Sequence record: ON568341.1
Reading direction: 5' to 3' (one strand)
Source of the DNA: Escherichia phage UE-S1
DNA length: 64,000 nucleotides
Positions 12,518 through 63,872 of the stretch are shown here, piece after piece (position 1 is the stretch's first letter; each line of letters begins with the position of its first letter). The position numbers were made by a program, and so were the translations under genes. The notes below the pieces were generated by a model. It searched no databases. It saw only the letters and a program-made list of their open reading frames with translations, and had not been told where the DNA came from.

Positions 12518-12525
12518 TATTTATA
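12518..12525 (-). promoter_or_regulatory. Late promoter (TATAAATA) for the minus-strand baseplate operon
   Basis: Exact TATAAATA on minus strand about 34 nt upstream of ATG 12483. Confidence 0.5.
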
Positions 12526-12527
12526 CG

Positions 12528-12556
12528 TGGGACAAAACACTTTTTGGTGCTATAAT
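12528..12556 (+). promoter_or_regulatory. Sigma70-like promoter with phage-specific upstream box (GTGGGACAA-N14-TGCTATAAT)
   Basis: Member of a recurrent motif family (see findings); about 57 nt upstream of gp55-like start. Confidence 0.5.
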
Positions 12557-12613: not shown

Positions 12614-13453
12614 ATGACAAATAGACCAAAGCGTAAAAAGTATCTCAATAATGCTGATTTACTTCGTGAAATACAAAAAAGTAAGATTTCATATTGCTGG
12701 TTATTAGACAAATCATATAGTATGTATGATTATATCGTTTTTCATGAGTCAGAAATTACTGCTGAGTTACTTGAAAAAGCAAAAGCAGCACGAATTAAAC
12801 GACTTAACAATGAAATGCTTGATAGTATTCGTGCAAAGGAAAATATGAGTGCTAAAAAAGCGAAAGAATATGCAGAAGAAAATAATCTAGTTATTACTGA
12901 TGTTCCAATTGATGAAGTAGTTATTCGTGTTATTACAGATGAACACATCCCACCAGATACTAGAGTTAATTTTGAACCTTTCAAACATTATATCGTAGAT
13001 AATGAAGGTATTCTTTATGAAGTATGTCGCTCTCATTGGAAAGGTGACCTTGAATCTGGGGAATTTAGTACTGTTCATGGTAAAATAACAAATGAACTAG
13101 GGAAAATGTTCATTAAACTAGCAGAGGAAATCTCACATAAATCTAACTATAGAAACTATACATACTTAGATGAAATGATGGGTGATGCAAGAATACAATT
13201 AGTTAAAAATGCACTTCTCTTTAAAGAGAGTATTCTTTATAAAAAAGACAAACCCGCTGTACAACTAAATCCTTTCTCTTACTATACATCATTCGTAAAC
13301 AATAGTTTTCGTTCAATTTTGAATAGTGAGAAAAATGTTCGAAATATACGTGATGATTTACTTGAAATGCATGGCTTTACACCATCACATACACGTCAAA
13401 TTGAAATTGAATTGAACATGATTGAAAGGAAAAATGAAGATGGCACTGTTTGA
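12614..13453 (+). CDS. Late-transcription sigma factor, gp55-like (280 aa) with about 110-aa internal insertion
   Basis: N-terminus (RPKRKKYLNNADLLREI) and core/C-terminal segments (GKITNELGKMFIKLAEEISHKSNYRNYTYLDEMMGDARIQLVKN; NPFSYYTSFVNNSFRSIL) resemble T4 gp55 as recalled; RBS GGAGAG; adjacent to gp47/gp46 as in T4. Start taken at ATG 12614 rather than ORF-track 12512. Confidence 0.7.
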   Translation: MTNRPKRKKYLNNADLLREIQKSKISYCWLLDKSYSMYDYIVFHESEITAELLEKAKAARIKRLNNEMLDSIRAKENMSAKKAKEYAEENNLVITDVPIDEVVIRVITDEHIPPDTRVNFEPFKHYIVDNEGILYEVCRSHWKGDLESGEFSTVHGKITNELGKMFIKLAEEISHKSNYRNYTYLDEMMGDARIQLVKNALLFKESILYKKDKPAVQLNPFSYYTSFVNNSFRSILNSEKNVRNIRDDLLEMHGFTPSHTRQIEIELNMIERKNEDGTV

Positions 13454-17227: not shown

Positions 17228-17257
17228 GTGAGACAACTTTAAAATTTGTGCTATAAT
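17228..17257 (+). promoter_or_regulatory. Promoter (GTGAGACAA-N15-TGCTATAAT) driving the ORF-free locus
   Basis: Same box and spacing as the primase promoter at 56742-56771. Confidence 0.5.
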
Positions 17258-17263
17258 ATTTGT

Positions 17264-17736
17264 TGTAGTAATGACAATCCTGTTGAATGCAGAAATGCAT
17301 ATAAATGAGAACCTGATCCTATCGAAAATGTAGATGGCAGATGAGCAGTTCAACAGTGCGATGAGCAGAAGAAACCCGTCAGATGTGGGCATAGTTTGAA
17401 CCCCTCACGGCAATGCGGCTCAATAAAGAACTCCGATAAGCATACAGAGAGTTCCTAGATAGACATATAAGGATCGCACCTTACCAGATTTGCTAAGGGA
17501 GTTTATTAAGTGATTTTAATAAACAGCCTGAAGTTTGATTGTATAGACTTTCAGGTGAGTGTCAGGATGATTAAGACTGACGACCGTTGCATATGACCGT
17601 GATAGGGAGAAACCGAGCAACCCGCTTCCGTTTGCGATTGATCTTTTTACAATATAGATCCGTCCAAAATTCACGATACAATAAATGCTGAAACCATCAG
17701 CGTCAAGAAATAGAGACTTCATTGTCTCTTTTTTAT
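17264..17736 (+). ncRNA. Candidate structured non-coding RNA (about 470 nt), class unknown
   Basis: Bounded by promoter 17228-17257 and terminator 17712-17736; no plus-strand ORF of 60 aa or more; visibly higher GC than flanks; several local stem-loops (e.g. cccctgcgggggg at 17748-17760 just downstream). Confidence 0.3.
17712..17736 (+). terminator. Rho-independent terminator ending the ORF-free transcript
   Basis: agagac-ttcatt-gtctct followed by T6. Confidence 0.6.
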
Positions 17737-17951
17737 TGTCTTCATTCCCCTGCGGGGGGATGAAAATGTCCTCAACAAATCCCGTCAAGTATTAAATCTT
17801 TTAAAGTTCTTTATAATTAATTTAATGAAATGAATATGAGTTACGTAGTAACGAATATTCTTCAGCTAACGAATGAAATGAGTTAGATGAATCCAATAAT
17901 ATTAAAATTAATTCTTCCATAATTCAATTCAAATAATTCTGTAGTTTAATG

Positions 17952-27518: not shown

Positions 27519-27603
27519 GTTTTTATATAACTAAAAGATCTTGACAGTACTTAACAATTGTAGTATCATACGTGTAAATAAAGAAAAGAACTCGGAGAAA
27601 ATC

Positions 27604-29199
27604 GTGTTAGAAGAAATCAAGAAGTTTTTATCAGAGAAAAATGTTCGTGGTGTTAAATCTGCTCTGCAAGCAAAATCTGTATACATTGAATTCCTGCGAG
27701 AGATGTTTGGTGATATCGATCTTAATGAAATGATTTATATGGTATTGAATGATATTACTTCAGTGCCGAATGCTGAATGTGGTGACAAAGCTAAGTTTAT
27801 AAGTATTACCGAAGGATATTCTTACAAGTGCAATAAACCATTTCAAGGAAAAGGAAAATGCCTTATCTGTTGCTCCGCAGTTGCTAGGAAACGTAAAGAA
27901 ACTTACAAAGAAAAAACTGGTTATGATAACCCGGCACAGAATCCAGAAATTCAAAAGAAAATAGGGTATACCAATGAACAACGTTATGGCACTCGTATTG
28001 CTCAACAATCTGAACAAGTAAAGCAGAAATCAATAGAAACTAATATTAAAAAGTATGGTGTTGTTCATCCATCACAGTTGGAAAGTAATAAACAGCAACG
28101 TTTACAAACGGTACAAGAAAAGTATGGTATCAATAATGTATGGCAACTTAATAAAGGTCTTAGTGCACGTTATGAACAGTTTAAAACACGATTTGAACAG
28201 GATGGTAAATTTACTCTTTTAAGTGATGAATCCCATTATGATAATAGCAATGACGCAACTCATGCAATCATGCACTGGAAATGTAATGAATGTGGTAATG
28301 AGTTTGATAAAGTTGCTCTTTGCTTACGCTGCCCTAAGTGTGAACCATATTCATCCAGTACTGAAGAAGTAAATCTTTATAATTACATTACCTCTATCTA
28401 TAGTGGTGTGGTTATTCAAAACAGCCGCAACATCATCAAAGGTAATGAGATTGATATCTTCATCCCAGAATTGAAACTTGGTATTGAGTTCAATGGTGAG
28501 TATTGGCATCGTGATGAAGTTCGTGGTAAAAACTATCATCAATCCAAATACTTCAAAATGAAGGAAGCAGGATACAAACTTATCACTATCTATAGTAATG
28601 AATGGTCAAATAAAACTGAAATTGTTAAGAATCGTTTGAAAAGTTTGATTAGTGTGGATAGTAAAATCTATGCTCGTAAGTGTGAAGTTAGATTGGTTGC
28701 CCATGAAGAATGTGATAAATTTTTGTATGAACATCATATTCAAGGACCATGCCAATCATCAATCAAACTTGGACTTTACTATAATGATGATTTGGTTGCT
28801 TTGATGACATTTGGTGCACCACGATTTAACAAGCAGTATGAATATGAATTACTGCGTTATTGTTCTAAAGGAACAGTTGTTGGGGGTGCATCGAAACTGT
28901 TAAAACATTTTGAACGTATGTATCTTCCTAAATCTCTTCTTTCATACGCCGATATGAACTGGAGTACTGGTAATTTGTATGAAAAAATTGGTTTTACTTT
29001 AGAAGAAGTAACTCAACCTGGTTATTTTTACTATGATAGAAAAAACGAAGTTGTTTATTCTCGCCATCAATGCCAAAAACAAAAACTTATTAAAAAATAT
29101 AATTTTGATAGTTCTATGACAGAGAAGGAAATGACAAAAGAATTAGGATACTTTAGAATCTATGATTGTGGTAACTTAGTTTATAAAAAGATTTACTAA
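27604..29199 (+). CDS. Multidomain homing-endonuclease-like protein, paralog 1 (GTG start; Cys clusters, tandem KYGV repeats, PD-(D/E)XK-like core, conserved C-terminal domain)
   Basis: Start set at GTG 27604 (RBS GGAG) by alignment with paralog at 62121 (VLEEIKKFL vs MIIDELKKFL); repeats …QEKYGINNVWQL…; core IDIFIPELKLGIEFNGEYWH; C-terminal block YELLRYCSKGTVVGGASKLL shared with paralog. Confidence 0.5.
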   Translation: MLEEIKKFLSEKNVRGVKSALQAKSVYIEFLREMFGDIDLNEMIYMVLNDITSVPNAECGDKAKFISITEGYSYKCNKPFQGKGKCLICCSAVARKRKETYKEKTGYDNPAQNPEIQKKIGYTNEQRYGTRIAQQSEQVKQKSIETNIKKYGVVHPSQLESNKQQRLQTVQEKYGINNVWQLNKGLSARYEQFKTRFEQDGKFTLLSDESHYDNSNDATHAIMHWKCNECGNEFDKVALCLRCPKCEPYSSSTEEVNLYNYITSIYSGVVIQNSRNIIKGNEIDIFIPELKLGIEFNGEYWHRDEVRGKNYHQSKYFKMKEAGYKLITIYSNEWSNKTEIVKNRLKSLISVDSKIYARKCEVRLVAHEECDKFLYEHHIQGPCQSSIKLGLYYNDDLVALMTFGAPRFNKQYEYELLRYCSKGTVVGGASKLLKHFERMYLPKSLLSYADMNWSTGNLYEKIGFTLEEVTQPGYFYYDRKNEVVYSRHQCQKQKLIKKYNFDSSMTEKEMTKELGYFRIYDCGNLVYKKIY

Positions 29200-32086: not shown

Positions 32087-32123
32087 AAAATTGGGACAGT
32101 GGATATAACTGTGATACACTTAA

Positions 32124-32158
32124 GTCATCTCACTAATGGTAGTGAGATGACATTTTTT
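32124..32158 (+). terminator. Rho-independent terminator after the fibre/chaperone pair
   Basis: 11-bp stem gtcatctcact / agtgagatgac followed by T6. Confidence 0.7.
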
Positions 32159-32183: not shown

Positions 32184-32486
32184 ATGGCTAAATCTAAAAA
32201 AGAAGTTAAAGTAGAAATTCGTGATCTAAACGATGAACAACGTAAACGTCTCGGTGATGCACTTAATAACATTGTTGTACAACTTACTTTCATTGATGAT
32301 ACCAAAGCATCCTTGTCAGATTTTGTTTCTAGTATTTCAGATGAACTAGGTATCAATGCATCTGATATCAAGCAAGCTGCACAGCGTATGTACAAAGGTG
32401 ATTACTTTGATAAACAAAGCAAACTAGATAACATCGAAACTATCCTAAGTGTTACTAATAATCTACCACAAGCAGATGATTACTAA
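32184..32486 (+). CDS. Hypothetical protein (100 aa)
   Basis: ORF with RBS GGAGATA upstream; followed by hairpin 32510-32536. Confidence 0.4.
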   Translation: MAKSKKEVKVEIRDLNDEQRKRLGDALNNIVVQLTFIDDTKASLSDFVSSISDELGINASDIKQAAQRMYKGDYFDKQSKLDNIETILSVTNNLPQADDY

Positions 32487-36031: not shown

Positions 36032-36062
36032 ATGAGACAAGCATCATTTTTTGAGATATAAT
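36032..36062 (+). promoter_or_regulatory. Promoter (ATGAGACAA-N16-TATAAT)
   Basis: Motif family member, about 64 nt upstream of ATG 36126. Confidence 0.45.
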
Positions 36063-36125
36063 GGTGCTTGTAGTAATCTGACATAAACACATTTTTGATT
36101 AACAAATAGAACGGAGAATTATATA

Positions 36126-36857
36126 ATGGATCTACGCAACGTATTACGTGACCTTGTAAACACAACCAGTGGTATTGACTTCTCTTGTATTGCTGTAAGT
36201 AGTGAAGACCGTGGTGAAGGGCAACGTGTATATCTAGAAGCGTACACAGATGACCGAACTCTAGTGATGCGAGCATATACTAAAGAGGATGTTCCTGAAG
36301 TTCAGGGTCGCTTTGGGTTAGGAAATCTAGGTCTTCTTCAGGGTCTAATGTCTCTAAAAACATACAGTACTGAAGGAACAACAATCACATCAAATGTCAA
36401 AGACGGTTCTGTAAAAAGTCTAGCATTTAAATCTGAAGATGCAAGCACTACATTTATGGTACAAGCTGAAAAACTTATTCCAGTACAACCACGTTTTCAT
36501 GAACAACCATATGACGTACAGGTTATTCCTAGTGCAGCAAAAGTTCAAGAACTAAAGAGTTTTTCTGGTGTATTTAAATCATTCAGTTCTCTCGTAACTC
36601 CGTATACTGATGGTGACACACTATACTTTCACGTTGGTGAGAAAAACAAAAGCAACCACGTTGGTTCACTAGCTTTTTCTAAAACTGATGGAGAATTGGG
36701 ACTTGGATTTGGATATAATATTGATCGAGTACTTCAAGCACTATCTCGTGTCTCTAATGCTGAATCTGTATCACTTGGTATCACAAAAACTGGTATGTTA
36801 AATGTCACACTAGATACTGGAATTGCTGTATACAAATTTTATGTAACTGGTTGCTAA
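36126..36857 (+). CDS. Hypothetical replication-module protein; possible sliding clamp (gp45 position), 243 aa
   Basis: Own promoter and hairpin; location after polymerase; no diagnostic motif, so function is positional guess. Confidence 0.25.
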   Translation: MDLRNVLRDLVNTTSGIDFSCIAVSSEDRGEGQRVYLEAYTDDRTLVMRAYTKEDVPEVQGRFGLGNLGLLQGLMSLKTYSTEGTTITSNVKDGSVKSLAFKSEDASTTFMVQAEKLIPVQPRFHEQPYDVQVIPSAAKVQELKSFSGVFKSFSSLVTPYTDGDTLYFHVGEKNKSNHVGSLAFSKTDGELGLGFGYNIDRVLQALSRVSNAESVSLGITKTGMLNVTLDTGIAVYKFYVTGC

Positions 36858-39621: not shown

Positions 39622-45897
<6,276 letters not shown>

Positions 45898-45943
45898 GAT
45901 GTTTGTCAAGGTGATGAGCCTTGACAAACAGAGTTAAAAAATA

Positions 45944-45972
45944 TGGGACAGTATAAAAACCTGTGCTATAAT
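45944..45972 (+). promoter_or_regulatory. Promoter (TGGGACAGT…TGTGCTATAAT) for gp32
   Basis: Extended -10 at 45962-45972; long A-rich leader to ATG 46061. Confidence 0.5.
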
Positions 45973-50415: not shown

Positions 50416-51900
50416 ATGAAAACTTGTAAGTTAACCTTATTGGATGAGGTGAATTGTAAATTTGAGGGACTTGATCCCTCAATTAGACAAAAGATGATTC
50501 GTGCAACTGAATATGTGTTACCATATGCAAAGTTCACACCAGCAGGACGTATTGGACGTTGGGATGGTAAAGTTCAGTTTATGAATTTAGGTGGAACAAC
50601 TTATTATCATATGTTAGATAAGTTATTGCCTATTCTTGATGAAGCTAAGATTGACATTGAATTGGTAGATCATAGGGTAGATTATGGATTTAAATTTGAC
50701 CCTATTGATGAAGATATTTTTAGTGATGTTGTATTCGGTGCAGGACACCACATGGAAGGTAAATCCATAAAACTACGTGAACATCAAGTTAATGCGGTTA
50801 ATGCATGTTTGGCTAATCCACACGGATTACTATTGGCAGCTACTGGTGCAGGTAAAACACTCATTACTGCTGCATTGTCAAAGAAAGTGCAAGAGTATGG
50901 ACGTTCTGTTATAATAGTACCAAGTACTGACTTAGTACAACAAACATATGATGACTATATTATGTGTGGGTTGGATACTGGTATGTTCTATGGTTCACAA
51001 AAAGATTTTGGTCACCAACATACTATTACAACGTGGCAATCATTTAACTCTCTATGGAAGAAAACCAAGAAAGGTGAAATTGAATTAACTGAACAAGATG
51101 TTAATGATTTTATCGATGGAGTAGTTTGTGTTATCGTTGATGAGTGTCAAGGTGCAGGTGGTGACGCATTAGTTCAAGTACTATCTAAAGTTATGAACAA
51201 CGTACCATTACGTTGGGGTCTTACTGGTACAATTCCGAAAGATCCGGTTGTCGCCGCAAAAATCAAATGTAATGTTGGTGATGTTATATTTAAAATAACT
51301 GCAAAGGAATTACAAGATAAACAGATACTAAGTACATGTAATGTAAATTGCATAAAACTAAAAAGTAGTATGAAGTTTGCATCATATGCTGAAGAGTTGA
51401 AATACTTAGTAACTGACAGAGATAGAATGGCATATGTAGCATCATTGATATCTGCGTTATCTGAATCAGGAAACACTTTAGTTTTAGTAGATAGGCTTGA
51501 AGCGGGTGAGTTGTTATGTGAATTTTTAGGTATTCCCAAATCAGAATTTGTTCGTGGAGAAACTAAAAAGAAAGATCGAGAATCATCATATGGTGAAATT
51601 CGTTGGGCTGATAATAAAATACTTATTGCGACATACGGTGTTGCCAGTACTGGTATCAGTATTTCAAGGTTATACAATGTAGTATTGATTGAGCCAGGAA
51701 AAAGTTTTGTAAGAACTATACAATCAATCGGACGTGGATTACGCCGAGCAGAAGATAAAGACCATGTGGAAATATATGATATTAGTGGTTCTAATAAGTA
51801 TAGTGCAAAACATTTACGTGAACGTTTAGCATATTATAAGGAAGCACAATATCCGCATAGTATAATAGATGTTAAAGATTGGGAAAACACAGCGGGATAA
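50416..51900 (+). CDS. uvsW: UvsW-like SF2 DNA helicase
   Basis: Walker A LLAATGAGKT, DExQ-type VIVDECQ, C-terminal ATYGVASTGISISRLYNVVLIEPGKS…IGRGLRR matching T4 UvsW as recalled. Confidence 0.85.
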   Translation: MKTCKLTLLDEVNCKFEGLDPSIRQKMIRATEYVLPYAKFTPAGRIGRWDGKVQFMNLGGTTYYHMLDKLLPILDEAKIDIELVDHRVDYGFKFDPIDEDIFSDVVFGAGHHMEGKSIKLREHQVNAVNACLANPHGLLLAATGAGKTLITAALSKKVQEYGRSVIIVPSTDLVQQTYDDYIMCGLDTGMFYGSQKDFGHQHTITTWQSFNSLWKKTKKGEIELTEQDVNDFIDGVVCVIVDECQGAGGDALVQVLSKVMNNVPLRWGLTGTIPKDPVVAAKIKCNVGDVIFKITAKELQDKQILSTCNVNCIKLKSSMKFASYAEELKYLVTDRDRMAYVASLISALSESGNTLVLVDRLEAGELLCEFLGIPKSEFVRGETKKKDRESSYGEIRWADNKILIATYGVASTGISISRLYNVVLIEPGKSFVRTIQSIGRGLRRAEDKDHVEIYDISGSNKYSAKHLRERLAYYKEAQYPHSIIDVKDWENTAG

Positions 51901-51921
51901 ACCCGCTGTTTGTGATATAAT
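51892..51921 (+). promoter_or_regulatory. Candidate promoter (GCGGGATAA-N15-TATAAT); upstream box lies inside the UvsW terminator hairpin
   Basis: Hairpin acagcggg-ataaa-cccgctgt at 51889-51909 overlaps the box, so promoter status is uncertain. Confidence 0.3.
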
Positions 51922-51955
51922 GTGTCATATGTAAACAACAAGGATGTGGAATAAA

Positions 51956-55767: not shown

Positions 55768-56745
55768 ATGGCTCATCACGGCGTGTTTATGTACCCTTAT
55801 AATCAGGAAGTATCATTGGGCAATTTTAATATGCCATTTAGTAATGAAAAACTAACTATCTATCGAGGGGCAAATAATAATTTATCTTTTACTGTTCACA
55901 ACGCTGATGGAAAATATACTTTATTGAAAGATAATGAATATCTTACATTTATGATTTTTGATGCACGAAATAATACTAAACTATTTGATGTTGTATTGGA
56001 AAAGCAAGAACCAAGTTGGTTATCAGAAAGTGGTCAAGCTCGTCAAACATTGGGAAATAAAAAGAAAGTATACTATGGATGTATTGTTCCAGCAGGAGTT
56101 ATTCAAGATACCAGTCCTGGTTCTAAATATAGATGGAGCATTACTAAAGTAACTATGGATGGTTCACTTATAGAACCAACACAATATCTATACACTGGAA
56201 TGAACTTTGAGGCATCAGCGGAGCTAATAATTTCAGACCAAGCAGCCCCAGTATTTGTTCCTAGTACTGAAATATCTACAGACAAAAATTCAGCCTGGAC
56301 ATCAATAAAGCGTTTATATAATGAACCAATTGGTAATGGTATGATAGGTGAGTATGATATACTCGCATCAACTCCACTTCCAGCACAAATGCAGTATGGG
56401 TTGGTTGATGGGCTAAGTAGCATTGCAATCTATTTTGATAAATTCATTGGAAGAATACAGTTACAAGGATGTTTGTGTAATAATGTACCTAATGATAATG
56501 AAAATTATAAATGGTTTATAATCAAATTAGATGGAAAGGATTATATTGAAAATGGGATTGATATTGATGGATTTCCAAAAGAACTTGATGGTATTCAAGC
56601 ATTTAATTTCAAAGGAAATTATATGTGGTTGCGAATCGTAGTAGCAATTCATCCTAAAAATGTTCCAGTACCATACGACTATGCTGCTGTGCGAAAAGTG
56701 TATGATCCTTTATTAACTGTACCTAAAATTTTGATTCGCAGGTGA
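55768..56745 (+). CDS. Hypothetical protein (about 326 aa)
   Basis: RBS GGAAGGA before ATG 55768 (ORF track start 55702). Confidence 0.4.
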   Translation: MAHHGVFMYPYNQEVSLGNFNMPFSNEKLTIYRGANNNLSFTVHNADGKYTLLKDNEYLTFMIFDARNNTKLFDVVLEKQEPSWLSESGQARQTLGNKKKVYYGCIVPAGVIQDTSPGSKYRWSITKVTMDGSLIEPTQYLYTGMNFEASAELIISDQAAPVFVPSTEISTDKNSAWTSIKRLYNEPIGNGMIGEYDILASTPLPAQMQYGLVDGLSSIAIYFDKFIGRIQLQGCLCNNVPNDNENYKWFIIKLDGKDYIENGIDIDGFPKELDGIQAFNFKGNYMWLRIVVAIHPKNVPVPYDYAAVRKVYDPLLTVPKILIRR

Positions 56746-56771
56746 GACAAAATTAGAAGGTGTGCTATAAT
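56742..56771 (+). promoter_or_regulatory. Promoter (GTGAGACAA-N15-TGTGCTATAAT) for primase/helicase operon
   Basis: Identical box and spacing to 17228-17257. Confidence 0.55.
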
Positions 56772-61450: not shown

Positions 61451-62124
61451 ATTACGAATATGATCAACAATCAGTCAATCAGATGGCTGATTTGTTAAGT
61501 GGTCTTAATGATATTGAAGCTGGTGAGACACACAATGCGGCAGGTGTACCATATAAAGCTAGTGGTGATATTGGTGCAATGACCGCTATTTTAACTTCAT
61601 TAAATGAAGCGGGTATGGACTATGGTACTGAACCCGAACCTACACATCCGAACGTAGTGCCATATAACGCACCATTTAACGAACACATGAATGGACAACC
61701 ATATGTTCAGCCTATGGTACATCGTTCACCTCCTAAACCGAAAACCAACTGGAGTTTAGTTGAAGAAAAGGTACAAGGTACGAAATCTACTAAAGTTTAT
61801 AGCATTAAGTGTAACCATAGTTCACAAATTATCATGAATAATATTATGATGTATGAAGCAGCACTTACTTTAGTTAACCTTCTTAACGAAGGGAGAATGT
61901 TGACAGATGCTAAAATTCTTGGTATAATTAGTTCGGGTTTGCAATATACAAATGTTATAAGCGAAGCATTAAAAGCAGCCCATAAACGCCAACGTGTACT
62001 TAATGAATCAAAGTATGATGAAGCAAAAGATTTAGATATAATCATTGCAGAAAAGAAAGCAGAAGCTTATAAATTAAAAGAGCGTGTGTTAAACTTTCTT
62101 AAAAATGAAGGGTATATCACTTGA
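61447..62124 (+). CDS. Hypothetical protein (225 aa)
   Basis: ORF. Confidence 0.4.
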   Translation: MNYEYDQQSVNQMADLLSGLNDIEAGETHNAAGVPYKASGDIGAMTAILTSLNEAGMDYGTEPEPTHPNVVPYNAPFNEHMNGQPYVQPMVHRSPPKPKTNWSLVEEKVQGTKSTKVYSIKCNHSSQIIMNNIMMYEAALTLVNLLNEGRMLTDAKILGIISSGLQYTNVISEALKAAHKRQRVLNESKYDEAKDLDIIIAEKKAEAYKLKERVLNFLKNEGYIT

Positions 62125-63872
62125 TTATAGATGAATTGAAGAAATTCTTAAAAAGCAAAAACAAAAAAACATGGGTTAAGTTGGTAAACAATAATGAAGT
62201 ATATTTTAAATATGTTCGTGAATTGTTCCCAACTAAACCCATGAATGAAGCATTATATCTTATAATGAACGATATGGTATGTGCACCATCTGCCCCATGT
62301 GGTTCTGAATGTAAATTTATTAATGGTTCATATGATAAGTATTGTTCTAAACCAACAAAACCAAACAAAAATCGTGATAATGGTTTTTGTGTAGTATGTA
62401 ATGAACATTGGAAGAACACCAAACTCAAAACTACTAAACAAAAATGCATTGATACTTATGGAGTCGAATACCATTGGCAAAGAAATGATGTAAAGGACAA
62501 AATAAAAAGTACTAATATGAAACGATATGGTGTTGAACACAATTCACATATCGAACATGTTCTTGAAAAACGAAAGGAAACTTTCATTAAAAGATATGGT
62601 GTTGAATCACCTTTGGCATCTGTTGAAATTCGTGATAAGATAAAAGCAACAAACATTGAAAAATATGGTGTTGAAAATTATGGAAGTACTGATGAATGTA
62701 TAGAAAAACGAAATAAAACAATGATGGATTTGTATGGTGTTAATAATGCACAACATGTAACGAAATTTTTAAATGAATCAAAGGTTACGAAAGCTAAAAT
62801 TAGGTATGATAAAATTTTATCTATTATTAACCCTTCATATAAAGAACTTTTTGAATATGATGACTTAATTGATTCTACTAATGAAAGTAAACTTCCGTAT
62901 TATTGTGAAATACACAAAGGGTTGTTTTATAGTAATTATAAATATGGTATAGTTTGTAGTGTTTGTAATCCACCCGTGTATAGTTCCATACAAAATGAAA
63001 TAAAGAATTTTGTGTCAACATTGACTGAATGTGACATTATTATGAATGATCGAAGTAATGGGTATGAATATGATATATACATCCCTGAACTTCAGATAGC
63101 AATAGAAGTTAATGGTATGTATTGGCACAAAAGTGATATGGTTGATAAGTATTATCATAGGGCAAAAACAATAAATTCAATCGAACGTGGTATTAGATTG
63201 ATACATATATTTGAAGATGAATGGTACAGTAAACAGAAAATTATTAAAAATAGATTAATGAACGTTTTTCAATGTTCTAGTAAGATTTATGCCAGAAAAT
63301 GTATTGTTAAAAAAATCAATACAAATATTTGTTATGATTTCCTAAACACTAATCATATACAAGGATATACTAGAACTGGAATAAACTATGGTTTGTTTTA
63401 TAAACAAGAACTGGTTGCAGTAATGACGTTCAGTAAAAGTCGATATGATAAAAAATTTGAATATGAGCTAATACGATACTGCTCACGTGGAACTGTTGTT
63501 GGTGGTGCTGGTAAATTATTGTCTGCATTTGAGCGTGATTACAAACCATTGTCGTTGATGAGCTACGCAGACTTGAATTGGGGTTCTGGACAGTTATACA
63601 TATCTCTTAACTTTGAAAATTTAGGATATACAGAACCAAAATATTTTTATTATGATCCAAAAACAAAACAGCGTTTTTCTAGACAAAAATTTAGAAAACA
63701 TAAATTGATTGAAATGGGATACAACTCATCTAAAACCGAAGAAGAGATATGCTTGGGTGAAATTGGATTGTATAAAATATACGATTCTGGCAATTGTAAA
63801 TTTGCTAAATATTATTACAACATAAACATTACAGGAGATATTGAAAAATGTCCAAATCGTACAAAAAACTAA
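62121..63872 (+). CDS. Multidomain homing-endonuclease-like protein, paralog 2 (TTG start)
   Basis: Same architecture as 27604-29199: KYGV repeats (…KRYGVEHNSHIEHV…KRYGVESPLASVEIR…EKYGVENYGSTDE…), core YDIYIPELQIAIEVNGMYWH, C-terminal YELIRYCSRGTVVGGAGKLL; only in-frame start near the N-terminus is TTG 62121. Confidence 0.5.
   Translation: MIIDELKKFLKSKNKKTWVKLVNNNEVYFKYVRELFPTKPMNEALYLIMNDMVCAPSAPCGSECKFINGSYDKYCSKPTKPNKNRDNGFCVVCNEHWKNTKLKTTKQKCIDTYGVEYHWQRNDVKDKIKSTNMKRYGVEHNSHIEHVLEKRKETFIKRYGVESPLASVEIRDKIKATNIEKYGVENYGSTDECIEKRNKTMMDLYGVNNAQHVTKFLNESKVTKAKIRYDKILSIINPSYKELFEYDDLIDSTNESKLPYYCEIHKGLFYSNYKYGIVCSVCNPPVYSSIQNEIKNFVSTLTECDIIMNDRSNGYEYDIYIPELQIAIEVNGMYWHKSDMVDKYYHRAKTINSIERGIRLIHIFEDEWYSKQKIIKNRLMNVFQCSSKIYARKCIVKKINTNICYDFLNTNHIQGYTRTGINYGLFYKQELVAVMTFSKSRYDKKFEYELIRYCSRGTVVGGAGKLLSAFERDYKPLSLMSYADLNWGSGQLYISLNFENLGYTEPKYFYYDPKTKQRFSRQKFRKHKLIEMGYNSSKTEEEICLGEIGLYKIYDSGNCKFAKYYYNINITGDIEKCPNRTKN

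Follow-up and report, generated by a model that had tools for sequence, protein, structure and literature searches.

Conserved promoters with an unusual box in the place of the -35 element in a Rak2-like Escherichia phage, and a phage sigma70-family factor as the candidate reader of the box

The locus ahead of the DNA primase-helicase operon raises the question of what a short box, recurring at a fixed distance upstream of a near-consensus -10 element before replication and regulatory genes, represents in the phage genome, and which factor reads it. The window, i.e., the whole stretch of 64,000 nt that was analysed, is DNA of a Rak2-like jumbo myovirus with ~92% identity to the Escherichia phage 121Q group, and it contains nine sites of this class on the plus strand and none on the minus strand. 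Their common layout is an A-tract, the box TG(G/A)GA(C/T/A)A, a spacer of 16 nt at eight of the nine sites and of 17 nt at one, and (TG)TGnTATAAT. All motif sites listed in the initial annotation were found in the sequence at the positions it gave, and the predicted promoters, together with the late sigma gene served by one of them, are as follows:

12528-12556, plus strand: promoter of the gp55-like late sigma gene (TGGGACAA, 14 nt, TGCTATAAT)
12614-13453, plus strand: gp55-like late sigma gene (PHROG match E = 8e-154; phrog_12791 and phrog_234, late sigma factor)
17228-17257, plus strand: promoter of an ORF-free RNA locus (GTGAGACAA, 12 nt, TGTGCTATAAT)
32092-32120, plus strand: promoter before a regulator-like ORF and the DNA polymerase (TGGGACAGT, 9 nt, TGTGATACACT)
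36032-36062, plus strand: promoter before a conserved unknown gene at 36126-36857, phrog_12062 (ATGAGACAA, 17-nt spacer, GATATAAT)
39622-39650, plus strand: promoter before the rnh-like 5'-3' exonuclease (TGGGAAAGT, 9 nt, TGTGCTATAAT)
45868-45897, plus strand: ssb promoter P1 (GCGGGACAA, 12 nt, TGATATAAT)
45944-45972, plus strand: ssb promoter P2 (TGGGACAGT, 9 nt, TGTGCTATAAT)
51892-51921, plus strand: promoter before a conserved unknown gene at 51944 (GCGGGATAA, 10 nt, TGTGATATAAT)
56742-56771, plus strand: promoter of the DNA primase-helicase operon (GTGAGACAA, 10 nt, TGTGCTATAAT)

Every site is on the coding strand, at a distance of 5-165 nt from the plus-strand ORF start that follows; the distance of 5 nt is that of rnh, whose true ATG, as judged from the relatives, stands at ~39710, some 60 nt further downstream. 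Back to back with the promoter at 12528, on the minus strand, is a TATAAATA late promoter (12518-12525); the box and -10 element of the 12528 promoter are identical in the relatives ELP-22 and vB_Ec-M-J, with a different spacer. The gene behind it is annotated in ELP-22 as 'sigma factor for late transcription', and its place among the targets of the class links the middle tier of transcription to the late one. The ORF-free locus encodes a conserved structured RNA of ~470 nt ending at a terminator near 17712-17735; Rfam and ARAGORN searches of the window found nothing. The site at 32092 has the weaker -10 element TACACT, preceded by TGTGA, and is followed by the small regulator-like ORF (32184) and then by the DNA polymerase (32566); its orthologues are present in ELP-22, vB_Ec-M-J, 7t3, EJP2, RaK2, and CBB. 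The tandem layout of the ssb promoters P1 and P2 is retained in every lineage examined. At four sites, the box extends over the stop codon or the final codons of the gene before it; the P1 box overlaps the end of a structural gene, the helicase stop codon is inside the box of the 51892 promoter, and the TGA stop codon of the preceding gene is inside that of the 56742 promoter. Late elements TATAAATA are found before the structural genes on the plus (19128, 25012, 26221) and minus (17176, 12525, 6487) strands; when the nine sites were compared with the T4 late type, in which TATAAATA occupies the -10 position with no -35 element, none of them had TATAAATA.

The class stands far above chance expectation, as modelled by 300 order-2 Markov simulations of the window on both strands. 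The strict expression GNGRGACAA-N15-17-TATAAT has four matches in the window, all on the plus strand, and G[AG]GA[CT]AA-N13-19-TATAAT has six on the plus strand and none on the minus strand; G[AG]GA[CT]A-N15-17-TATAAT was observed seven times versus a simulated mean of 0.17 and a maximum of 2, and G[AG]GANA-N13-TGNTATAAT seven times versus a mean of 0.003. Relaxing the -10 element to TAnnnT added only scattered matches in coding regions, all without an extended -10, and therefore the real set is the nine sites of the initial annotation. A full-length position weight matrix trained on eight ELP-22 sites from beyond the window region fitted the spacer too closely and retrieved only four of the nine sites, and anchored regular expressions with register analysis were used in its place. 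Likewise, a crude ORF-based coding mask labelled the gp55 and RNA-locus promoters wrongly as coding, via spurious ORFs, and the coding or non-coding calls were taken from the annotation of the syntenic relative ELP-22. By this annotation, the -10 elements of all nine sites are outside the genes, in a window of which only ~7.6% is non-coding. The agreement of statistics and gene placement upholds the view that a real, phage-specific promoter class precedes replication and regulatory genes, and on sequence comparison the nine sites are confirmed as real, conserved promoters with an unusual box in the place of the -35 element.

The anatomy of the sites was compared with that of sigma70 promoters. 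The -10 element is TATAAT at eight of the nine sites (TACACT at one), and TGn is also present at eight; TATAAT with a 17 +/- 1-nt spacer and an optional TGn is what sigma70 promoters have in this half. The core of the box starts 22 nt before the -10 element, except for 23 nt at 36032, and the box occupies exactly the -35 register, the same as in the TTGACA or TTGCAA early promoters of ELP-22, which is 92% identical. The consensus hexamer TTGACA is absent, with G at -35 and G or A at -34 at all the sites, and only GACA is common to both; GGGACA versus TTGACA gives four matches of six. The initial annotation was right that the box differs in sequence from the sigma70 -35 element, but it is not a separate upstream element: it takes the -35 register and shares GACA. 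The 'TGGGAMAGT' sites set apart as a related type (39622 and 45944, with a copy at 32092) merge with the others, having the same GGGA(C/A)A core at the same position. UP-like A-tracts accompany the boxes. The motif and its register are direct observations, and so are the substitution counts from the comparison of the window with ELP-22 and vB_Ec-M-J, in which the box differs at 4 of 91 positions and TGn plus -10 at 0 of 117, versus 36 of 182 in the spacer and ~10-12% in the flanks. This pattern shows purifying selection on the box and the extended -10 while the spacer drifts.

Genome-wide, ELP-22 has 19 sites of the class on the plus strand and none on the minus strand, located between 59 and 319 kb, and 16 of the 19 have the 16-nt spacer and the same TG(G/A)GACA at the same spacing. 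Their targets include the gp55-like gene, ssb, primase, exonuclease, a nudix hydrolase, tRNA-Gly, and tRNA-Ser. The same genome has 93 TTGACA or TTGCAA promoters, concentrated in the terminal-repeat and early regions. In the more distant relatives, the orthologous promoters directly show a kept position and TGnTATAAT, and a box that changes by lineage: TG[GA]GACA in Asteriusvirus, TGAGACA in EJP2, GGGACA in 7t3, TTGAACA in RaK2, and TGAAACG (as published) or TGGAATG in CBB. The promoters aligned with CBB sites are those of the ORF upstream of pol, hyp0394, rnh, ssb (two), hyp0411, and primase, while that of exonuclease-0429 was aligned only in ELP-22 and other relatives, its window counterpart being past the window end. 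The hosts of the compared lineages are all Enterobacterales. Region 4.2 of sigma70 is taken here as identical among Enterobacterales hosts; on that premise, a box that varies between phage lineages means that the specificity factor is phage-encoded, as had been proposed from the window alone. In the related phage PA5oct, the primase and ssb orthologues are preceded by the canonical TTGACA-N17-TATAAT, the -10 element before primase being extended by TGn, and no Pseudomonas record was found by organism tally among the 90 sigma matches (90 kb of this genome were scanned for promoters). The RNA-seq-supported promoters of PA5oct were reported as TTGAC plus TATAATA, and in the PA5oct paper the equivalent TTGACA/TATAAT sites fall on start sites seen by RNA-seq. 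Vibrio phage 2.275.O, considered as a sixth lineage, proved too distant to inform the comparison; at its replication-gene promoters, AATGTTATAAT is all that is shared and the -35 box is absent, and the sigma of this phage, of ~400 aa, is truly RpoD-like.

The architecture itself has a precedent: for Pectobacterium phage CBB and Cronobacter phage GAP32, orthologous 'divergent RpoD-like promoters' had already been predicted (Buttimer et al. 2017, PMC5259590, citing Abbasifar et al. 2014), with a classic -10 and TGAAACG for TTGACA before DNA-synthesis and gp55-like genes. The window sites share with that class the clade, the -10 type, a non-canonical -35 box, the targets and, as shown for CBB, the orthologous positions, but have TG(G/A)GACA versus TGAAACG. 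They are, thus, a member of an already predicted promoter class with a different box. The passages of PMC5259590 consulted neither assign the recognising factor nor compare the box variation between lineages, and the RaK2 genome paper discusses neither promoters nor sigma.

The best candidate for reading the box is the early sigma70-family factor of the clade (gp167 in 121Q, ELP22_0564 in ELP-22), which carries regions 2, 3, and 4 and whose gene is outside the window. It was found in every Enterobacterales-infecting Rak2-like lineage examined, which is a direct observation; that the phage of the window encodes it too is extrapolated from these relatives. The gene is located in the early-gene region of ELP-22 and, in 7t3, behind a TTGACA-N17-TATTAT promoter. 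Phage Ecwhy_1, for which the published list gives sigma as absent, was considered as a natural knockout; tblastn revealed an intact gene of 99% identity, and no sigma-less Asteriusvirus was found in the genome collection examined.

The positions responsible for -35 specificity in sigma70 are R584, E585, R586, R588, and Q589 (PMC2613000; PMC12262734). In an AlphaFold2 model of the phage sigma (region 4 pLDDT ~85; whole-model mean pLDDT 62, pTM 0.36), the recognition helix begins at R293, and R293, S294, S295, H297, and R298 align with these positions. The HMMER alignment of region 4.2 is confident only to the start of the helix-turn-helix, and the residue equivalences hinge on a 7-residue insertion in the turn, supported by the model and by the A(M/L)xKL pattern. 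The residues at sigma70 584-589 are RSSIHR in ELP-22, RSSVHR in ph0011, RSSLHR in vB_Ec-M-J, RTSLHR in 7t3, and RCTIHR in EJP2, all with an xGACA box, and RGTLHY in RaK2 and KATLSR in CBB. Helix and box are shared by 7t3 and ELP-22 though their sigmas are only 38% identical overall, and both differ in RaK2, at 46% identity. Across 12 Asteriusvirus-type homologues, the most divergent at 48% identity, R293, S294, H297, R298, and Y300 never vary. The arginine aligned with R584, which contacts -31, is retained wherever the box has C at the -31-equivalent position, and the residues tied to -33 to -35 are altered, with the box departing from TTGACA at -35 and -34. The predicted DNA-reading residues of the helix change in step with the box, a correlation that comprises about three independent box states and that any lineage-specific phage protein would show likewise.

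The sigma70-family factors of other phages that direct middle or late promoters, namely Bacillus phage SPO1 gp28, phiEco32 gp36, and that of phage 7-11 (PMC8948821), offer a parallel, in which an early sigma binds the host core and redirects it to phage promoters of its own consensus within a sigma cascade. Here, in contrast, the -10 element is that of the host and the departure is confined to the -35, and the clade sigma keeps regions 2-4 with a beta-hairpin insert in the turn of region 4.2.

A less probable reading, still to be taken seriously, is that host sigma70 acts on the extended -10 while a phage activator binds the box, with or without a partner remodelling sigma70 region 4, i.e., appropriation of the MotA/AsiA kind, as the initial annotation suggested. 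The consensus TGnTATAAT holds without deviation in every lineage and matches what regions 2.4 and 3.0 of sigma70 recognise, while the phage sigma lacks several of the corresponding -10-reading residues, namely the W433/W434 pair (sigma70 positions), and in the 121Q type R436 and Q437 are replaced by Y and M, and H455 and E458 by Y and V; therefore, host sigma70 would be at least as good a fit to the -10 half. The layout also resembles the T4 middle promoters, which likewise serve replication genes in a tier between sigma70 early and gp55 late transcription and have a good -10, often TGn-extended, with a phage-specific box replacing the -35, and hundreds of early genes of unknown function could supply such a factor. 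However, the T4 box (a/t)(a/t)(a/t)TGCTTtA is centred at -30, whereas TGRGACA is here in the -35 register and no TGCTT-like element is present at any site, which bears out the distinction from the MotA box drawn in the initial annotation. The exact register, the 16-17-nt spacing, and the kept GACA look sigma region-4-like rather than MotA-like. T4 has MotA/AsiA and no RpoD-like sigma, whereas this clade has an RpoD-like sigma, and a limited search for MotA/AsiA-like genes yielded no homologue in ELP-22: its 751-feature record has no such annotation, and local tblastn with approximate query sequences gave no match better than E = 1. An activator would, moreover, leave a universally conserved early phage sigma without a promoter class. 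Of the proposed activator or appropriation factor, then, the phage-encoded specificity stands, and the phage sigma is the better candidate because the clade encodes one with regions 2-4 and a recognition helix that varies with the box.

It is considerably less probable that the sites are ordinary extended -10 promoters of host sigma70, with a weak -35 (GACA) tuning their strength and no phage factor involved. Extended -10 promoters depend only slightly on the -35 (PMC2613000), and those of E. coli share with the window sites TGnTATAAT, the 16-17-nt spacer, the UP-like A-tract, and GACA, the last leaving GGGACA with its four matches to TTGACA. But TT, the two -35 bases that are otherwise best conserved, gives way to G(G/A), which is itself conserved and lineage-specific; an unread -35 should decay differently at each site, whereas 16 of the 19 ELP-22 sites hold one box at one spacing. 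The box also evolves slower than the flanks, the promoters of a whole lineage shift together (to TTGAACA or TGAAACG) with host region 4.2 taken as the same, and PA5oct, without a detectable RpoD-like sigma, has TTGACA at the same promoters. That the motif is not a promoter at all, i.e., a repeat arisen by chance or a signal for processing, termination, or replication, would suit the several sites overlapping hairpins or gene ends, yet is highly improbable for a motif ~40-fold above chance, strictly on the coding strand, at a fixed distance to a consensus -10 and ahead of Shine-Dalgarno sequences and start codons, orthologous across five lineages, and with PA5oct equivalents at RNA-seq start sites.

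The balance inclines, by a modest measure, to the nine sites being middle-tier promoters of the Rak2-like (121Q/Asteriusvirus) type, with the box read by the early phage sigma. In the cascade proposed, host sigma70 holoenzyme would first transcribe the early regions, which are outside the window, from the TTGACA/TTGCAA promoters, and one early product would be the phage sigma70-family factor of ~321 aa, with regions 2 and 3 and a region 4 bearing the beta-hairpin insert in its helix-turn-helix. This sigma would then act on the host core RNA polymerase, the region 4.2 helix R293-S-S-I-H-R298 (121Q type) reading the box, and would switch on the replication and recombination genes, the ORF-free RNA, the tRNAs (in ELP-22), and the gp55-like late sigma gene, whose product would finally drive the structural genes from their T4-like TATAAATA late promoters. 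The start sites and timing, and the choice of the phage sigma over another phage factor as the reader, we infer from sequence. Co-evolving sigma-promoter pairs within the clade are an evenly balanced proposition: the R-S-S-x-H-R helix with the beta-hairpin would read TG(G/A)GACA, the host-type extended -10 remaining unchanged, and the sister helices (RGTLHY, KATLSR) and middle promoters (TTGAACA, TGAAACG) would have been re-tuned together.

Transcription of the 121Q/PBECO4 group is essentially undescribed in the literature searched, and the sites would define the middle tier in these coliphages, which are now isolated often and are under consideration for phage therapy. Annotation gains from the promoter list, which corrects start codons, such as that of rnh, and exposes a conserved non-coding RNA unit where gene callers place spurious small ORFs. 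It offers concrete promoter-sigma pairs, and the residue-to-base predictions for a non-canonical -35 could inform orthogonal sigma design. If the proposed reading is true, the clade would be a natural collection of orthogonal -35 specificities, and a third way of switching to the middle genes would stand beside T4 MotA/AsiA and SPO1 gp28.

Over a 3.7-kb stretch of primase and helicase genes the window is ~92% identical to Escherichia phages 121Q, PBECO4, slurp01, G17 and ELP-22, which form the genus Asteriusvirus of Rak2-like jumbo myoviruses (~350 kb), and its primase protein is 96% identical to that of 121Q, 95% to ph0011 and 90% to vB_Ec-M-J, with ~64-66% for RaK2, 7t3, EJP2, CBB and GAP32; these identities suggest a species related to the Asteriusvirus group. 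The window is syntenic with ~176-240 kb of ELP-22 and carries baseplate genes, a gp55-like late sigma gene, sbcCD, head genes, and the genes for DNA polymerase, terminase, ssb, uvsX, primase and helicase. All the plus-strand sites at which the initial annotation had placed a recurrent phage box before a near-consensus -10 are found in the sequence (12528, 17228, 36032, 39622, 45868, 45944, 51892 and 56742), and the copy at 32092, left unassigned there, has TGTGATACACT at the correct distance downstream and counts as the ninth predicted promoter, its -10 being weaker. The pattern G[AG]GA[CT]AA-N13-19-TATAAT has six matches on the window's plus strand and none on its minus strand. The three sites noted for a TGGGAMAGT box (39622, 45944 and 32092) share the core GGGA(C/A)A, 22 nt 5' of the -10, and belong to the same class as the other sites. 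By 300 order-2 Markov simulations of the window, G[AG]GA[CT]A-N15-17-TATAAT is expected 0.17 times (both strands together) and its version requiring the extended -10 part TGn 0.003 times, against seven observed for each; a relaxed -10 scan of the window gained only noise. All nine -10 elements fall in non-coding DNA, which by the annotation of the syntenic relative makes up ~8% of the window; at four sites the box runs into the final codons of the preceding gene, an example being the TGA of GTGAGACAA, the stop codon of the gene preceding primase.

An unbiased tabulation of 5-mers upstream of every TATAAT in the complete ELP-22 genome brings out three prominent plus-strand promoter classes that share one register.

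Promoter classes of ELP-22
Early class: GTACTTGCAa-N16-GTATAATGtTTTACAT; 38 copies, plus strand; terminal repeats
Canonical class: TTGACA-N16-18-TATAAT; 55 copies, plus strand; mostly small-early-gene regions, 0-20 kb and 276-373 kb
Box class: TG(G/A)GACA-N16-TGnTATAAT; 19 copies on the plus strand, 0 on the minus strand; 59-319 kb

The highly stereotyped early promoter, AAAAAGTACTTGCAa-N16-GTATAATGtTTTACATcaaGaGGgG (n = 38), stands upstream of the small early ORFs, one for each, nearly all in the terminal repeats (1-23 kb and 353-373 kb). The box class, with a spacer of 16 nt in 16 of its 19 sites, has among its targets the genes for the gp55-like sigma, ssb (two promoters), primase, an exonuclease, a nudix hydrolase, tRNA-Gly and tRNA-Ser. 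Because its register is that of the TTGACA and TTGCA classes, the box occupies the -35 position. The initial annotation was right about a box lying upstream at a fixed distance; its supposed difference from the -35 hexamer holds for the TT, replaced by G(G/A), but not for the position itself or for GACA, common to both. Among the sites aligning gap-free in the window, ELP-22 and vB_Ec-M-J, substitutions affect 4/91 positions of the box, 0/117 of the TGn and -10, 36/182 of the spacer and ~10-12% of the flanks.

Other features of the window
19128, 25012 and 26221, plus strand; 17176, 12525 and 6487, minus strand: T4-like late promoters TATAAATA, before structural genes and endonuclease VII
17258-17740, plus strand: ORF-free unit from the putative middle promoter (box class) 17228-17257 to an intrinsic terminator AGAGACttcatTGTCTCTTTTTT, ~17712-17735
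17741-17764, plus strand: GC-rich hairpin TTCATTCCCCTGCGGGGGGATGAA directly 3' of that terminator, near-invariant in 5/5 aligned lineages
27541-29199 and 62121-63872, plus strand: paralogous ORFs with DUF7487 and an MTES_1575-like endonuclease domain
32124-32158, plus strand: hairpin with T-run, GTCATCTCAC...GTGAGATGAC ATTTTTT, starting 3 nt past the -10 of the promoter that precedes DNA polymerase
32184-32486, plus strand: 100-aa protein just 5' of DNA polymerase, with a weak match to PHROG 639 'transcriptional regulator'
36037-36071, plus strand: inverted repeat ACAAGCATC ... GGTGCTTGT flanking the spacer and -10 of promoter 36032
41889-44549, plus strand: large terminase ORF of 886 aa (ELP-22: 546 aa)
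45903-45927, plus strand: hairpin TTGTCAAGG...CCTTGACAA in the leader of ssb promoter P1

The gp55-like sigma gene matches phrog_12791 (E = 8e-154), and its middle promoter lies back to back with the minus-strand late promoter at 12518-12525; such a layout fits three putative tiers, of host-sigma70 early, middle-class and gp55-like-sigma late promoters. Several promoters are intertwined with hairpins kept via compensatory changes. The hairpin before DNA polymerase, retained in this way in six lineages, may be the terminator of the upstream late operon, and middle-promoter transcripts, without part of its 5' arm, could read through; the ssb leader hairpin, whose structure is kept in ELP-22, vB_Ec-M-J and RaK2, may act as an operator through which ssb regulates itself, or else as an RNA stability element; equivalents of the repeat at promoter 36032 in EJP2, 7t3, CBB and RaK2 keep the complementarity and not the sequence. 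The ORF-free unit contains long nucleotide blocks invariant in the window, ELP-22, vB_Ec-M-J, 7t3 and CBB, lineages whose primase proteins are only ~64% identical; it has a fold z-score of -3.7 and compensatory changes at 25/110 pairs (RNAalifold), and matched no Rfam family, tRNA or tmRNA. It is probably an undescribed structured non-coding RNA, ~470 nt, of Rak2-like phages, at a locus where public annotations place tiny hypothetical ORFs. The extra terminase segment, with matches to the LAGLIDADG_3 and Hom_end homing-endonuclease domains, is a LAGLIDADG intein, which RaK2 and EJP2 also carry (~880 aa) and ELP-22 and CBB lack. The paralogous ORFs are likely mobile homing endonucleases, since no ELP-22 gene occupies the second one's position. 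The position of the small ORF before DNA polymerase recalls that of T4 regA, located before gene 43.

The replication modules of RaK2, CBB, vB_Ec-M-J, 7t3 and EJP2 were compared by alignment upstream of seven orthologous genes. Promoter position and TGnTATAAT are constant in every lineage compared, whereas the box is lineage-specific.

Box, and residues of the phage sigma at sigma70 positions 584-589
Asteriusvirus (ELP-22, ph0011, vB_Ec-M-J): TG(G/A)GACA; RSSIHR, RSSVHR and RSSLHR, respectively
EJP2: TGAGACA; RCTIHR
Salmonella phage 7t3: GGGACA, spacer mostly 17 nt; RTSLHR
RaK2: (C/T)TGAACA; RGTLHY
CBB: TGAAACG or TGGAATG; KATLSR

Since the box changes lineage-wide and in concert, while sigma70 region 4.2 is taken as identical in the hosts, E. 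coli, Salmonella, Klebsiella and Pectobacterium, its specificity calls for a phage-encoded determinant. Passages of Buttimer et al. (PMC5259590) describe in CBB a 'divergent RpoD-like promoter' whose -10 is classic, with TGAAACG replacing TTGACA, in 18 copies, of which 11 precede genes of DNA synthesis and one precedes the gp55-like gene, a motif also noted there in GAP32. The CBB box found here is exactly that motif, so that the window motif can be regarded as the Asteriusvirus member of a promoter class already predicted bioinformatically; a literature search found no description of it in the 121Q group.

A candidate reader is the 321-aa sigma70-family protein encoded among the early genes of ELP-22, outside the window, with Pfam matches to regions 2, 3 and 4 and matches to RpoD and SigA structures (E ~1e-17 by single sequence, ~1e-30 by profile). 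Every Enterobacterales-infecting Rak2-like lineage examined has a homologue, Ecwhy_1 included, which rules out that phage as sigma-less, a published listing having put the factor among its absent gene products; the 7t3 gene is preceded by a TTGACA-N17-TATTAT promoter. The AlphaFold2 model, built from 12 homologues, is of low overall quality (mean pLDDT 62) and confident in region 4 (~85), which consists of helix 274-280, beta-hairpin 282-290 and long helix 293-313; by this model and the A(M/L)xKL pattern, R293, S294, S295, I296, H297 and R298 would align with sigma70 R584, E585, R586, I587, R588 and Q589. These sigma70 positions determine the -35 specificity, R584 with -31, E585 with -33 and -34 and, genetically, R588 with -33 (PMC2613000; PMC12262734). 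Across about three independent box states, the xGACA box accompanies an R..HR helix: 7t3 has helix and box in common with ELP-22 despite a sigma only 38% identical overall, and RaK2, with a sigma 46% identical, differs in both. Homologues down to 48% identity show no variation at R293, S294, H297, R298 and Y300. The R584-aligned arginine is retained wherever the box retains C at the -31-equivalent position, and the residues linked with -33 to -35 are changed, the box departing from TTGACA at -35 and -34. Pseudomonas records are absent among the 90 sigma matches, and in the more distant relative PA5oct the primase and ssb orthologues have canonical TTGACA-N17-TATAAT upstream, the primase site with a TGn-extended -10 (TGCTATAAT), in agreement with the TTGAC and TATAATA promoters reported at RNA-seq start sites of PA5oct.

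Host sigma70 with a phage-encoded activator is a serious rival reader, because in their -10 half the middle promoters match the host-type extended -10 perfectly and the phage sigma has lost residues: it is without the W433/W434 pair and, in the 121Q type, has Y and M in place of R436 and Q437, and Y and V in place of H455 and E458, with IRQ and H455 retained in some other lineages. A MotA/AsiA-like system is unlikely for these promoters; homologues are neither annotated in ELP-22 nor found there by a weak local search. The interpretation in the initial annotation is supported in part: a phage-encoded specificity factor is needed, and the phage sigma is its more probable identity. What is added to the earlier prediction is a lineage-specific drift of the box that follows the sigma recognition helix.
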